Shown here in pieces: positions 6,446-62,720 of a stretch of DNA of 64,000 nt. The notes under the pieces were generated by a model. The model had not been told where the DNA came from. It made no database searches and was given only the letters and a program-made list of their open reading frames with translations. A program made the position numbers and the translations under genes. Positions within the stretch are counted from its first letter, which is position 1, and each line of letters starts with the position of its first letter. This DNA comes from Mobula hypostoma (Eukaryota), in contig NC_086108.1 of assembly GCF_963921235.1 (NCBI RefSeq), forward strand, positions 71,736,001-71,800,000, in the 5' to 3' direction.

Positions 6446-6621
6446 ATTTCTTGCAGTCCCACCTTGATTGCTACCTAAAGAAATTATTTGATAAACATTC
6501 TGCAAAGGATTCAGTCAATAAACTCAGTTTAAATTTGACATACTATACCCAATTTTAACAAAAGGTGTCCTAGTTAAATAGCACCCAAGCCTCCATGTTT
6601 ACAAAACCTTATTAAATGTTT

Positions 6622-6690
6622 AAACAACACACATCAAAGTTGCTGGTGAATGCAGCAGGCCAGGCAGCATCTCTAGGAAGAGGTACAGTC
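6622..6690 (-). mobile_element. Fragment of young PLE terminal repeat
   Basis: caacacacatcaaagttgctggtgaatgcagcaggccaggcagcatctctaggaagaggtacagtc is near-identical to the arms at 12036-12101 and 20365-20430. Confidence 0.85.
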
Positions 6691-7806: not shown

Positions 7807-8005
7807 AAACAACAGGAATTCTGCAGATGCTGGAAATTCAAGCAACACACATAAAAGTTGCCCAGGCAGCATCTCTAGGAAGAGGTGCAGTTGATGTTTC
7901 AGGCTGAGACCTGACGAAGGGTCTCGGCCTGAAACGTCGACTGCACCTCTTCCTAGAGATGCTGCCTGGCCTGCTGCGTTCACCAGCAACTTTTATGTGT
8001 GTTGC
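7807..8005 (-). mobile_element. Short inverted-repeat PLE terminal-repeat insertion with 14-bp TSD
   Basis: TSD cctcttcccacccc at 7793-7806 and 8006-8019; tail at left; inverted arms; hammerhead core at 7911-7943 (+). Confidence 0.92.
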
Positions 8006-11998: not shown

Positions 11999-12167
11999 CA
12001 AACAACAGGAATTCTGCAGATGCTGGAAATTCAAGCAACACACATCAAAGTTGCTGGTGAACCCAGCAGGCCAGGCAGCATCTCTAGGAAGAGGTACAGT
12101 CGACATAACACACATCAAAGTTGCTGGTGAACGCAGCAGGCCAAGCAGCAACTTTGATGTGTGTTGC
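11999..12167 (-). mobile_element. Short rearranged PLE terminal-repeat insertion with 13-bp TSD
   Basis: TSD aagtcttaccctg at 11986-11998 and 12168-12180; tail, arm, tandem partial arm, short inverted arm; sits in a minus-strand CR1 relic. Confidence 0.9.
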
Positions 12168-16432: not shown

Positions 16433-19400
16433 TACCTTTCTCTCTAATTATCTTGAAACTAATAGCATTATGATCACTAGATGCAAAGTGTTGCACTGCA
16501 CAAACTTTTTTCAGCTGCCTATCTCATCCCTTAATCGGAGATCAACGTTTGCACACTCTCTCATTGGGACTTCTATCTACTGATGAAGGAAATTTTCCTG
16601 AATGCATTTGACAAAAACCATATAGTCCTTTTATGGTATGGCAGTCCCAATAAATATGTGGAAAGTTTAAAATCACCTACTGTCATGACCTTATATTTCT
16701 TGTAAGTCTGTGATCTCTCTACAAATCTACTCCTCTAAATCCCACGGACTGTTGGGTGGTCTATAATATAGTCACGTTAATCCTCAGTTCCATCCATAAA
16801 GCCTCACTAGGCAAATTCTCCAGTCTATCCTGACTGAGTAATGCCACAACATTTTCCCTGACTAGTATTGCCACCTGTCCTCCTTTGATCCCTCCTGCTC
16901 TATCACATCTAAAACAATGGAACCCCAGAATATTGAGCTGTCAGTCCCACCCCTTCTTCAACTATGTGTTGATCCGTGCCCTGAGCTTATCTGCCTTTCC
17001 TACAATAATTCTTGTACTGAAATATATGCAGCTCAGAACATTAGTGCCACCATGCTCAACCTTTTGCTTCCCGACTTTGTCTGAGGTCTTAACATCTGCT
17101 TCCACAACCACTCTACTACAACTGGTGATGAGGCTCTGATTGGGGACTTTCAAAGCTTTGGGGAAAGTGGAGTTACCCCTTAGTCATTCATTGCTCCCAG
17201 GGCCGCTCTGACCCAGAACAGTAGTACCTGCAAGGGTTCCTGCTCAGGATTCGAGCAAAGGCCAACGGCAGATCCGGCAGGTTCAGTAACTGAACTTATG
17301 ACGGAGAAGGTGGATGAGTTAGGACCTCAAATGTCAACGGCTATAGTACAGGCGGATGAACATTTGGGAAGAGAAATGGTGATTTCTTTAGTTCACCGTT
17401 GCTAGATACTAGGTTTCCTAGAATCGATTTGCTAAGAAAACCATGGTCAAACTCACCAAATGTATCACACAACAACAGCGTCAAGAGGATCTTCAAGACA
17501 ATTCTGAAGATGCTTCGCTTGGTAGGGTTGATTCTAGGCAGCAGGGGATCCACGACCGTCATCAAGCTACTGCTCATAAAATTAAAGTAACACAAAAGAA
17601 AATTACTGCCACTTGGAATGTAAGAACCCTATATCAAGCGGGAAGATTAGACAATGTGATAAATGAAATGGAAAGACTAAAGATTAACATCATGGGAATT
17701 AGCGAAGTTCGTTGGATAGGTGCTGGAACATGTCAGAATAGAAATAAAACACTAATTTATTCTTATGGAACATCCCATACTAATGAATACTTATGGTTGA
17801 AAACGTGGCAAAAAATGCTTTAGGACATTGGGCAATATCAGAAAGAGTGCTCCTTTTTAGGTTCAGAGGACAACCATTTGAGTTAGCAATTATACAGGTA
17901 TATGCACCAACAACAGATGGAACAAATGAGGATAGAGATAAATTCTATGAAGAGCTTGAACAAGCAAAGAATGGATGCAAATCTCAAGATATTGTTATTG
18001 TCATGGGATATCTAAATGCTAAAGTAGGACAAGGTGCTGATGGAAATACCATAGGAAAATTTGGACTAGGGGAAAGAAATGAAAGAGGTGATAAATGGGT
18101 AGAATGGTGCAAGATGAATAATCAGGTCATTACGAATACCTACTTTAAAAACCATCCAAGTCGCTTGTAGATCTGGAAAAGTCCAGGTGATAACACCAGA
18201 AATCAAATTGACTTTATTACTATAAACCAAAGACCAAGAAACTCAGTGACTCAATGTAAAACATATCCAGGTGCAGACTGTAATAGTGACCATAACCCAG
18301 TAGTATGTCATGTAAAAGTAAAACTTAAAAAACTAAAGAAGCAAAAACCTGAACAATCCCTTGACGACTTGCAATTAGTTAAAGAAGAAAACTGAAGACA
18401 AAAATTTACAATTAAAGTAAGGACTAGATTTCAAAGTCTAGAACTAGAATCTGTTGAAGATGATAGCAATCATGTAGAAATGAAATTTAACTCTCTAAAG
18501 GATGCCTTGGTAGAATCAGCAAAGTCAGTGATTCCTAAAAAAGGAAAAAGCACAAAGAATAAATGGATGACAGATGAAATCAAAAATCTAATGGAAGAAA
18601 GGAGACAGAAGAAAGCCAATCCTATAGAATAGAAGTCCTTAGATAGAAAAGTTAAAAGCTTATGTCAAAAAGCCAAAGAAGAATGGTTAAACCAGGAATG
18701 TGAGCAAATAGAAAGAATCCCTATTACTGATCCAAAAAGGTTACATCAACAAATCAAGAATATCACTGGTAAAAAGCTCCTCTGTTCTTCAGGTGGATGT
18801 TTGAAAGCAACGGATGGTACCATTATCATGGAAAAAGATGAGATTATGAACAGGTGGACTGAGTATATTCAGGAATTGTTTGAAGACGATCGAGGCAAAA
18901 AACCAGAAACTAAGAAAAATATTGAAGGTCCAAGTATTTTAAAATCTGAAGTTCGTAATGCAAAAAATAATATGAAGAAAGGAAAGGCAGCAGGTCCTGA
19001 TGAATTTGTAATAGAACAAATTATTACCCTTGAAGATTATGGAATTGAAAAACTTACTGATTTAATCAATGACATTTATGAGACTGGAATAATACCAGAA
19101 AAGATGGAAAATATCAGTATTTATCACTCTTCCTAAGAAACCTGGAGCAAAAGAATGTGAATTAAATAGAACCATAAGTTTAATGAGTCATATCACCAAG
19201 ATACGTCTAAGAATTTTGATGACAAGAGCTAAAAGTAAGATACAAGCTGAGATAGGTAAAGAACAATGTGGTTTTGTGAAAGACAAAGGTACAAGAAACG
19301 TAATATTGATGTTAAGGATACTATCAGAACGAGCTATTCAAGTGCAAAAAGATTTGTTTGTTTTATCGACTACACAAAAGCATTTGATAAAGTGAAGCAC

Positions 19401-20363
19401 AATAAGTTATTTGAAATATTACAGAAAACTCTAGATTTAGATTCAAAAGACCTCTGCCTAATCAGAAATCTGTACTGGGAACAGACTGCCGCTGTAAGAA
19501 TAGATGGAGAAGTGAGTCAGTTTACGAAAATCAAGAGAGGCATTAGACAAGGGTATGTTTTCTCCTCTGATTTATTTAATGTGTACAGTGAAACAATATT
19601 ACAAAAAATAAGAGATATCTTGGGAATCAAAGTTGGCAGTGAAAACATCAATAATTTCAGATATGCAGATGTTACTGTGTTAATTGCAAGTACAGAGGAA
19701 GAACTACAAAACTTAATTGATATAGTTGTTGAAGAAAGTGCAAAAATGGGTCTATCTATCACTTGCAAAAAGACAATGTATGGTGATATCCAAAAAGAAG
19801 GAGAATCCTATCTGCAGGCTGAGAATAAACGAGGAAGACATAAAACAAGTACAGAACTTTTGCTACTTAGGAAGCTGGGTGAGATCAGATGGCAGGTGCG
19901 ACATGGACATCAAAAGAAGAATAGGGATGGCAAAAGACACCTTTACGAGAATGAAGAGTATACTGACCAGTACTAAACTAGGCATGACAACCCACCGCAG
20001 AGTACAGAAATGTTACGTTTATCCAGTTATGTTGTATGGCTCAGAATGTTGGACACATACCTAGTAACATGAGGAAATGAACTGAAGCAGCAGAGATGTG
20101 GTTTTTGAGGAGGATGCAAAGAATATCATGGATGAAATAAATATCTAACAAAGATGTCATGAACAGAGCAAACACAAAAAGAGAAATAATGTATGAGATC
20201 ACGAAAAGGCAACGTAACTTCATTGGACATGTGATTAGGAAAGAAGAGTTAGAATGCACGGTAATTATGGGAAAGATTGAAGGGAAGGAAGCACGAGGAA
20301 GACAAAGACAAATGATGATGGAGACAGCAGCCAGAGCATTGGAAATGAATACCAATGAACTGA

Positions 20364-20589
20364 GCAACACACATCAAAGTTGCTGGTGAACGCAGCAGGC
20401 CAGGCAGCATCTATAGGAAGAGGCGCAGTCGACGTTTCAGGCCGAGACCCTTCGTCAGTCCTGACGAAGGGTCTCGGCCTGAAACGTCGACTGCGCCTCT
20501 TCCTATAGATGCTGCCTGGCCTGCTGCGTTCACCAGCAACTTTGATGTGTGTTGCTTGAATTTCCAGCATCTGCAGAATTCCTGTTGTT
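20364..20589 (+). mobile_element. Perfect hairpin PLE terminal-repeat insertion with 14-bp TSD
   Basis: TSD taccaatgaactga at 20350-20363 and 20590-20603; arms 20364-20458 and 20461-20555 are exact reverse complements; ~34-nt tail. Confidence 0.95.
20456..20493 (+). ncRNA. Minimal type-I hammerhead ribozyme motif with intact core
   Basis: cagtc-CTGACGA-agggtctcggcct-GAAA-cg-TC^-gactg; 5-bp stem I; predicted cleavage after 20488. Confidence 0.85.
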
Positions 20590-21954
20590 TACCAATGAAC
20601 TGATCCACTTGACCGGAAACAGGAGTGTGTGGGCCATGGCAGTCAAAGATCAAACTGGGCACGGCACCTGATGATGATGATGATGATGCCTCAGGTTTCC
20701 ATCCCCCTGAAACTCTGGTTTAATCCTCTCAATGCAATAATAGCAAACCTTCCTGCTAGGATATTTGCCCCCTTCAGTTTAGGTGCACACTGCTTCTTCT
20801 GTACAAGTCCCACCTTCCCTGGAAGAGAGCCGAATGAACCAAAAATCTGTAGGCTCTCCTTCCTACACCAACTCCTGAACCATGTGTTAAACAGTATGAT
20901 CTTCCTACTTCTGGCCTCACTAGCACGTGGCATGGGTCGCAGTCCTGAGATCACAACCCTGGAGGGTTAACTTTGCATCTATCTCTCTGAACTCAGTTTG
21001 GACCTATATTGACAATGACCTTTGGCTGCTCATCCTCCCACTTAAGAATGCTAAGGACTCAATCCAAGATATCCAGGACCTTGGCTCATGGGAGGCAATG
21101 TACCATCTGGGAATCTTGTTCTTGTCCACACAACCTTCTTTCTGTTCCTCTTACTAACGAATCCCCTATCACCAGAGCATGCCTCTTCTTCACCCCTCCC
21201 TCTCTTCTAAGTCACAGAGCCAGACTCAGTGCCTGAGACCTGACTGCTGTGACTTTCCTCTGCTAAGTCATCCCTCTCAACAATATCCAAAGTGATTTAC
21301 CTGTTGTTGAGGGTTTCGGTCATGAGGAACACTGCACTGGCTGTTTAGCCCCTTTCACCGTCCTGACTGTCACCCAGTTTCCCGTGTCTTGCACCCTGGT
21401 TGTAACTACCTCTCTATATGTCCTTCATATCACCCCCTCAGCCTCCCCAGTGATCCAGAGTTCATCCAGTCCAGCTTCAACTCCTTAACACAGGTTGTTA
21501 GAAGCCGCAGCTGGATGCAGTTCTTGTAGTTGTAGATGTCAGGGATACTGGAGATCTCTCTGCCTTCCCACATCCTGCAAGAAGAGCATTCGACTATTCT
21601 GCCTGACGTCCCCACTGCTCTAACTACGATTATAAATAAGGAAGCAATAAATAAACTGAAAAAAATCTACCTACTGCTTTTTGCCTCTTCCTACTCAATC
21701 CTCTCCTTTCTGAAGCCGTGAATAGTTAAAACCACAAAATCCCAATTTTAACTCTGCCCTCTTGAACAAAGGCCGCTCTGCTTGCCACTGCCTTACTTTA
21801 ATTTGCACTTGCTAATGCGTCTGATCTCTGATTCGCTGAATGCTCTCATGAGGTGCTGATTTTTAATGCACACTGGCTGACCTCAGTGAGTCACTCCTCT
21901 CGCTTCCAATTTCAGATTCGCCACCGTTCAAGAACAGTGTGCATTGTCGCCGCA

Positions 21955-61356: not shown

Positions 61357-62720
61357 CAAGGTTCAAAATTCAAGAATGTTTATTATTATGCTTTAGTACA
61401 TGATTGTAAAGGAGAAAGAAATGATTGTAATTCCAGATCTGATGCAGTTTAAAAAGCACAATAAGCATAAAGAACACAATTAAAAAAACAAAAAAACCCA
61501 CATTAAATATAAATATGAAAGCAATCCTATAAAGCACAATGTACAAGTAACTGTTACATATAGATTGATTGTATGTTCATAAAGTGACACAAGGTGATGT
61601 GTCCTCCCTTCCAAAACGTGTTGATGGTGGTGGTAGTGGCAGTGGGGGTGGTTAACGGCTGGAAGTGCTAATCAGCCAGACAGCTTGTGGGAAGTCACCG
61701 ACAAGAGAAAATCTGCAGGTGCTGGAAATCAAAGTAACACACACTAAATGCTGGAGGAACTCAGCAGGCCAGGCAGCATTTCAGCAAAATATAGAAACAT
61801 AGAAAATAGGTGCAGGAGTAGGCCATTCAGCCCTTCGAGCCTGCACCGCCATTCAGTATGATGATGGCTGATCATCCAACTCAGAACCCTGTACCTGCCT
61901 TCTCTCCATACCCCCTGATCCCTTTAGCCACAAGGGCCATATCTAATTCCCTCTTAAATATAGCCAAATGAACTGGCCTCAACTGTTTCCTGTGGCAGAG
62001 AATTCCACAGATTCACCACTCTCTGTGTGAAGAAGTTTTTCCTAATCTCGGTCCTAAAAGGCTTCCCCTTTATCCTTAACTGTGACCCCTCGTTCTGGAC
62101 TTCTCCAACATCGGGAACAATCATCTTGCATCTAGCCTGTCCAATCCCTTTAGAATTTTATATGTTTCAATAAGATCCCCCATCAATCTTCTAAATTCCA
62201 ACGAGTATAAGCCTAGTCGATCCAGTCTTTCATCATATGAAAGTCCTGCCATCCCAGGAATCAATCTGGTGAACCTTCTTTGTACTCCCTCTATGGCAAG
62301 AATGTCTTTCCTCAGATTAAGGGACCAAAAGAGTAAGCAGTTGACATTTTGGGCCGAGACTCTTCATCAGGATCTGACAAAGGGTCTTGACCCGAAACAT
62401 CGACTGTTAACTCTTTTCTATTCTTGCTGCCTGGCCTGCTGAGCACCAGCAGCATCTTGTGTGTGTATTAGCTTGTGTGCAGTAACTGTTTTTGAGACTA
62501 GTGGGTCTGGGGTGGATGCTGCATAGTCTCTTCCTTGATGGGAATGGGGCAAACTGTCCAAATGCAGAGTAGGTGGGAACCTTTATAATATTGCTGGTCT
62601 TTCTCTGGCACCATTCTGTATATAGGTCCTTGAAGGCGGGTAGGTTAGTGCTGGTGATGATTTGTACATCATTATATATTGTATGCTTTTGCAATATCAA
62701 CATTGTCTTCTTAGACCTAA
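61357..62720 (-). mobile_element. Three-level nest: Rex1/Babar 3' fragment containing a palindromic PLE element (61701-62468), which contains a young CR1 3' end (61791-62327)
   Basis: Degenerate TSD agcttgtg.g.agt.ac near 61682 and 62470; oppositely oriented decayed hammerheads 62338-62406; CR1 closely matches 2157-2692. Confidence 0.85.

Follow-up and report, generated by a model that had tools for sequence, protein, structure and literature searches.

How a perfect, non-coding hairpin bearing a hammerhead motif came to lie inside a decayed LINE of Mobula hypostoma is the question raised by this locus, found in a window (the whole stretch of DNA analysed) of 64,000 nucleotides. The insert is 226 bp long (20364-20589) and is bounded by an exact 14-bp TSD, past which the flanking bases differ on both sides. 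Its arms (20364-20458 and 20461-20555) are complementary at 95 of 95 positions around a 2-nt TC loop, or read as 96 nt long if one TSD base is counted in, and an unpaired tail of 34 nt follows (Table 1), all in agreement with the original prediction. The fold energy of the insert is -211 kcal/mol (z = -30 against 200 shuffles). The prediction had placed the insertion in the 3' end of an RTE element, and its position near the 3' end of a decayed LINE holds: the host matches RVT_1 at 19260-19973 (E 2.8e-18), has a (GAT)n end at 20670-20688, and its C-terminal frame is continuous across the site once the insert and one TSD are removed. The RTE label itself is a presumption, based on the RT match and the (GAT)n end.

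All parts of the hammerhead announced for the apex were found by inspection, namely stem I, the CUGACGA core, stem II, GAAAC-GUC and a loopless stem III, which we take to be the minimal form that works as a dimer. Rfam gave no hammerhead match for the insert, either at the gathering score or at E <= 10. A match of the hairpin to mir-3926 (E 3.7e-9, under the family cut-off) was rejected as an identity, since it reflects the perfect stem only. In transcripts of the locus, if there are any, the 95-bp duplex is predicted to sequester the hammerhead. Exact matches to the apex, 36-38 nt long, were found in short-read contigs of other runs (X5/X6), and one contig (X1) matches the left junction exactly over 68 nt, with only 19 nt on the insert side, less than our 31-nt bridging rule. 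An assembly artefact was rejected on account of the TSDs, the varied junctions across loci and the short-read apex contigs. When the orthologous site was sought in short-read runs, the best runs contained less than half of the words, and the empty-site joints observed there probably derive from paralogous LINE copies.

Table 1. Features of the insertion and its host (window coordinates; pLTR numbering has +1 at 20461, the first base of the CUGACGA core).
Feature	Position	Strand
Left TSD copy, 14 bp (13 bp if the 1-nt overlap with the tail continuation is element)	20350..20363	+
Untailed arm A: PLE pLTR +95 to +1, outer end at internal start site A	20364..20458	-
AG, 2-nt microhomology joining the arm 5' ends (arm A +1, arm B -3)	20457..20458	.
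Tailed arm B: pLTR -3 to +129	20457..20589	+
Minimal type I hammerhead motif; predicted cut after 20488	20457..20493	+
Site of the first ATG of the parent ORF (as in L202); GTG allele in the insert	20549..20551	+
34-nt tail: early parent-ORF codons between start sites A and B; small stem-loop fold	20556..20589	+
Right TSD copy	20590..20603	+
Host: decayed LINE (RT match, (GAT)n 3' end), broken near 3' end; 5' limit approximate	17422..20688	+

The two variants shared by both arms (ctatagg and gcgcagtc) are absent from the other copies in the window, as had been noted, but they are not private to the insert: the 32-nt core that contains both has 19,072 exact matches in the 3.48-Gb genome. They mark a PLE subfamily and, being subfamily alleles, give no evidence that one arm was copied from the other. 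Many of the core matches extend upstream into a 3' UTR and an ORF. The sequence past the tail, continued from locus L104, has 581 exact genome matches; a guessed extension of the tail was discarded, as it had only 11 matches with unrelated flanks. One locus, L202, holds a full-length tandem PLE with a period of 3,516 bp and an open frame of 1,043 codons (L202:788-3916, minus strand) that encodes, in this order, an RT, a CX4CxxC linker and a GIY-YIG domain. The matches to RVT_1 (E 6e-5) and GIY-YIG (E 1e-3) are both under the Pfam curated cut-offs, and the frame has the DKG and YIDD motifs. The linker, of the CX2-5CxxC type, lies at residue 910 between RT and EN; according to the accessible part of PMC8557442, such linkers are common to Neptune and Nematis and absent from Penelope/Poseidon. 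As judged from sequence, it marks the parent as a putative member of Neptune or Nematis and not of Penelope/Poseidon. As in EN+ PLEs, a single ORF with RT and then a C-terminal GIY-YIG was found together with tandem pLTRs, a tail and a hammerhead motif. The ORF of L202 looks intact, and RT/EN and ribozyme activities are predicted. These features bear out the proposed PLE origin, with retro-insertion by PLE RT/GIY-YIG.

The tailed arm differs from the L202 pLTR at 2 of 133 positions, +56 and +89, both of which are polymorphic. The parent ORF has its first ATG at +89, the tail being early ORF sequence; the A/G polymorphism at +89 toggles this first codon between ATG and GTG. Partial tandems of the PLE were found at L184-L186, L198 and L199, and a short stretch ahead of the linker is in a different reading frame in L202 than in L131. 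Retrozyme-like head-to-tail arrays of pLTR and ORF start are present at L203 (G000:C2:157816000-157818500), L204, L192/L193 and L104, with periods of 310, 262 and 435 bp; they are non-autonomous retrozyme-like derivatives of the young PLE family.

The insert is a very short head-to-head insertion of a young, putatively Neptune-type PLE, and neither a MITE nor a master element. Since an inverted pLTR, a one-sided tail and a TSD make up the published typical PLE layout, the locus, which is real, young and PLE-made, belongs to a known kind and is not a new element class. In the accessible part of PMC3846280, a shorter inverted pLTR with a one-sided 31-bp tail inside the TSD is described as the typical Penelope structure; that of PMC8557442 describes this layout as well, explains the tail by endonuclease resolution and regards the PLE cycle as undefined. 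As far as these two texts go, Pen2a of Adineta vaga (PMC3846280; scheme in PMC8557442) resembles the insert in its shorter inverted pLTR on the 5' side, its one-sided tail of 30-40 bp, the overlap of pLTR and tail with the ORF start, and the enclosure of the whole unit within the TSD. The insert differs in having no ORF between the repeats and a TSD of 13-15 bp instead of 8-10, and the M. hypostoma PLE differs in its thousands of young copies. Non-LTR retrozymes, as described in the available portion of 10.64898/2026.07.22.740005, are likewise non-coding and PLE-derived with a type I hammerhead; however, they form head-to-tail tandem arrays, whereas the insert is one head-to-head unit with no head-to-tail repeats. 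Like a MITE or foldback DNA transposon the insert is short and non-coding, with a long inverted repeat and high copy number, but ragged ends, the lack of a short fixed TSD, the asymmetric tail and the RT-element sequence set it apart. The accessible portion of PMC12910113 contained nothing relevant, and neither this family nor twin priming as a source of PLE inverted repeats is described in the accessible literature as a whole, from which most subscription papers, older PLE reviews among them, are missing.

The behaviour of the family was followed in a consecutive sample, in which the first 100 core matches on contig C1 gave 80 loci, or 79 after removal of L159, a duplicate of L158 (G000:C1:13257000-13265100, a tandem segmental duplication of ~4 kb that carries the same insertions twice). 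This sample spans the first 14.6 Mb of one contig and is biased to loci with two intact cores, and all our counts are from a single assembly. Head-to-head two-arm insertions make up 36 of the 79 loci (23 short and 13 long, with arms up to 2.6 kb), which extrapolates to ~15,000 loci, ~6,900 two-arm insertions and ~4,400 short hairpins in the genome. In a DNA search with the 226-mer, 40 of 1,182 candidates were scored and all of them were 97-100% alike; each of the 30 matches fetched lay within a TSD of 12-17 bp, was ragged at its 3' end and carried the same substitutions, mirrored, in its two arms. Arms that are perfect across the pLTR were seen in 8 of 30 sampled pairs and are therefore not exceptional.

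That a fixed 226-bp master, of MITE or SINE type, had spread as a unit could be argued from the 224 genome copies of the exact 24-nt apex and from the 9 of the 30 best 226-mer matches, query included, that show no difference across the aligned part; some re-mobilisation of hairpin transcripts may also occur. However, this apex accounts for only ~5% of the estimated short hairpins, and among the first 30 exact-apex copies 12 carry a TC-side tail and 18 a GA-side tail. Mirrored alleles are seen in all four combinations of two sites, the ends are ragged, and the TSDs are neither short nor fixed. The master reading is largely refuted and we give it hardly any credence. Because all 36 two-arm loci have different junctions and the apex carries its tail on either side, the hairpins must be made anew at each insertion, with recurrent stop points. 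The proposal that the unit was mobilised as such is not supported, given the same 36 junctions.

Both outer ends of these insertions are ordered. Of 40 single-arm copies, 22 end at site A (+86 to +97) and 18 at site B (+128 to +134) (L095, L104 and L126 are excluded from these counts and L119 and L147, which run off the stretch, also from the single-arm TSD count). The untailed arm of two-arm loci terminates where single insertions begin, at site A, and the A-end distributions of the two classes are alike (KS p = 0.30). Exactly one arm is tailed in 34 of the 35 consecutive two-arm loci with both ends seen, the remaining one (L139) being A/A and none B/B; under independent site choice at the single-copy ratio of 22 A : 18 B this has P = 8e-10. 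The same holds for 30 of 30 loci selected on the apex alone. A broader set of 114 two-arm loci, from which 7 duplicate pairs were dropped, includes ~30 loci found by means of the full query and some found by means of the tail; the A+B test is therefore based on the consecutive and apex-only sets. In this broader set a TSD was detected in 105 loci and was 12-18 bp long in 102, with a mode of 14 and no fixed sequence (a 30-bp call at L117 was treated as no call). The genome copies thus have neither a fixed short TSD nor fixed ends, in keeping with the earlier view that this is not a DNA transposon.

TSDs of 12-17 bp were found in 32 of 36 two-arm loci against 11 (exact) to 18 (lax) of 38 single-arm copies (p = 1e-7 to 2e-4). 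Moreover, the two strands show one and the same nick motif beyond the TSD (T at +3 and +6 to +8, n = 102), with a stagger of 13-14 bp, and the overlap with the element continuation averages 1.5 nt at A ends and 1.4 nt at B ends, compared with 0.4 and 0.3 in shuffles. The A/B pairing, the TSDs, the common motif and the equal overlap together indicate that both outer ends behave as priming sites. The non-tailed arm stops before +80 in 13 of the 114 two-arm loci, among which L103 is only a fetched-edge cut.

At the inner junctions, arm 5' ends were placed by strict mapping, since BLAST over-extends palindromic apexes (-12/-12), and L031 and L059 were left unmapped. Among the 36 junctions, 14 show 1-5 nt of microhomology, 7 are blunt and 15 contain filler, some of which is mapping artefact. 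Arm A reaches further 5' in 14 of the 36 loci, by up to 1.7 kb, arm B in 19, and in 3 they are equal; the 5' ends of paired arms are correlated (rho 0.64). In exact-apex copies the untailed arm has sequence absent from the tailed arm in 18 of 30. An untailed arm that is the longer one on the 5' side cannot have been copied from the tailed arm, so the earlier idea that one arm was templated from the other does not stand as a general rule; the young age and the origin of both arms from one template are supported. Paired arms carry the same allele at 534 of 569 diagnostic calls, the 6% that disagree being mostly CpG, versus 65% agreement in permutations, and they usually come from one source. Non-CpG differences between arms occur in 4 of 94 short pairs and in 6 of 10 long pairs, where for two they are confined to the region near the ends; the arms are unlike at non-CpG sites in L072, L102, L124, L140 and L160. 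In L072 and L160 the two arms have minor alleles in common upstream, but their pLTR alleles are different. The arms of L102 and L124 are as divergent as unrelated copies, which means that origin from the same RNA is not universal.

Some loci record the template more directly. In L095, where both arms lie inside a single 14-bp TSD, arm B covers 29 nt of tail (+130 to +102) and after a jump resumes at -1110, while arm A spans +93 to -1140. Arm B stops at +55, +71 and +86 in L100, L137 and L113, respectively. The L137 filler carries, in antisense, a piece of the ORF from beyond the tail, and thus its template was a sense RNA extending past site B. These four loci fit two RTs working on one sense RNA that reaches beyond site B. 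The same ORF stretch (~+155 to +190) was captured beside the junction in L137 and in L197, which suggests a favoured RT jump site or a third start site. L080 and L081 share an identical complex palindromic junction with the tail on opposite arms, a sequence-directed recurrence. Of the arm ends lying between -40 and +35, 14 of 66 fall at -4 to -2 (p = 2e-7), a position that we take to match the initiator consensus; on this sequence likeness the hot spot may be the RNA 5' end. Hammerhead cleavage as the main 5' boundary was rejected, since no more than 4 of 110 ends map to +29 to +31.

In L1 twin priming both nicks prime cDNA on one RNA, and the products are joined by microhomology within a full TSD; the second primer is set at a variable internal site and the two parts barely overlap. 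For the PLE insertions, we consider it likely that each 3' overhang primes a cDNA on a single shared RNA, one at each of two internal start sites, and that the cDNAs join by microhomology. A probably dimeric GIY-YIG would nick both strands 13-14 nt apart and leave two 3' overhangs, one of which would prime at site B, the tail end (+126 to +138), and the other at site A (+91 to +96), usually on the same RNA. Both cDNAs would head for the RNA 5' end, often halting near the 5' edge of the hammerhead, and their 3' ends would join via 0-5 nt of microhomology or filler, each being copied into the other strand. Single-arm copies would then be events in which one cDNA was lost. At our insert, B would have run to -3 and A to +1, giving the AG junction. 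Copying one stretch of RNA twice might proceed by strand displacement or on two pLTR copies of a tandem transcript. In this scheme the pairing rule, the TSDs, the motif and the junction counts are observed, and we infer that a dimer acts, that one RNA is used and in which order the steps occur. The two-arm loci would thus share with L1 the single RNA, the microhomology join and the full TSD, L095 resembling it, and would differ in their fixed sites ~35 nt apart, with near-total overlap that yields a palindrome.

Biochemical data on a related element point in the same direction. In the accessible part of PMC11167929, the Poseidon PLE PAc of Anolis carolinensis nicks and extends both strands in vitro, is modelled as a dimer, and starts RT at two internal sites bounding the tail. 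As far as that text goes, PAc resembles the insert family in its pLTR hammerhead, its two tail-bounding start sites, its extension of both strands and its uncleaved RNA template, and differs from it in that our family has a Neptune/Nematis-type linker and a first ATG at +89, downstream of the hammerhead and not at stem II. The same portion of the paper makes no link between both-strand extension and inverted insertions and pairs no strand with a site; its sole use of "inverted" refers to a blocking nucleotide. Against twin priming, it also reports that start sites do not differ between strands and that primer homology is absent, whereas 1-2 nt are seen here.

Twin priming on one RNA is favoured by the A+B pairing, the shared nick motif, the fuller TSDs of two-arm loci, the arms in which A is the longer, and loci L095, L113, L100 and L137. 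Less easily accommodated are the need for both cDNAs to copy the same RNA segment, the A/A locus, the early-ending untailed arms (13/114), the discordant L102 and L124, and the correlation between arm 5' ends. This correlation is also expected from fold-back, in which a tail-primed first cDNA would snap back, copy itself and stop near the stem-loop of the tail. Fold-back would also give the alleles common to both arms, the near-equal 5' ends of L102, L108, L133 and L148, and the longer B arm of 19 of the 36 loci, our insert, with A nested in B, being of that form. However, it cannot supply the sequence that A holds and B lacks (14/36, and 18/30 of the exact-apex copies), nor the non-CpG arm differences of the five discordant loci. 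A-primed cDNAs, to judge from 22 of 40 single copies, should fold into tail-less hairpins, but only 1 of 35 was found, and at our insert the process would require a 2-bp stem with a 2-nt loop. As a general rule fold-back is refuted by the A-longer loci and we regard it as unlikely, although it may explain a minority such as L133.

The inverted repeat might instead be built before integration by self-priming of an antisense transcript, as proposed for Pen2a in the accessible part of PMC3846280, with a tail left by endonuclease resolution (PMC8557442, likewise in part). Matched arms and head-to-head polarity are accounted for in this way, as are the palindromic junctions at L063, L121 and L080/L081. 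But most of the 36 junctions are blunt, filled or overlap by 1-5 nt, discordant arms exist, and the L137 filler and the L095 jump suit a sense template. Moreover, both ends coincide with two start sites of a type that RT uses in vitro on sense RNA, according to the available text of PMC11167929. Our counts disfavour antisense self-priming, to which we assign about the same small probability as to fold-back. A further possibility is that two separate RNAs are held by an asymmetric dimer and both nicks prime, the arms matching because the RNAs usually share a source locus. No double copying of one RNA is then needed, L102 and L124, whose arms differ throughout, are well explained, and the evidence from the ends is the same as for twin priming. 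Against it, the B arms of L095, L113, L100 and L137 halt shortly after entering A territory or jump over it, and only 4 of 94 short pairs carry a non-CpG difference despite the many subfamilies; we consider two RNAs unlikely.

Twin priming may also be taken further. There is in our view an even chance that the inverted pLTR with its one-sided tail is the footprint of obligately asymmetric twin priming, in which every insertion begins as an A+B pair. On that reading a dimeric PLE protein would prime both nicks on one RNA, one per start site, and some long arms, as in L072 and L160, would owe their origin to a jump from one pLTR to the other within a tandem transcript. If true, it would explain a long-unexplained hallmark of PLEs.

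The locus itself is ordinary for its family, and its value is that of one among ~6,900 young two-arm insertions that record PLE integration. The counts tie the two start sites and two-strand extension seen in vitro, as given in the accessible part of PMC11167929, to inverted structures in a genome, and the nick motif, the length of the stagger and the nearly intact ORF of the family make PLE integration directly testable. Such hairpins are prone to mis-annotation as MITEs or miRNA precursors and, if transcribed, they could be a large source of dsRNA against the PLE.

Other insertions are present in the same window. Two further young two-arm insertions of this PLE lie at 7808-8005 and 12001-12167, with the tail on the left arm, TSDs of 14 and 13 bp, respectively, and different junctions; the former has a deletion in one arm only. 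An older, diverged head-to-head pair of a related pLTR family lies at 62337-62466, indicating that the head-to-head process is not confined to the young subfamily. In a single copy at 6619-6690, the start coincides with the predicted hammerhead cut and the end with site A.
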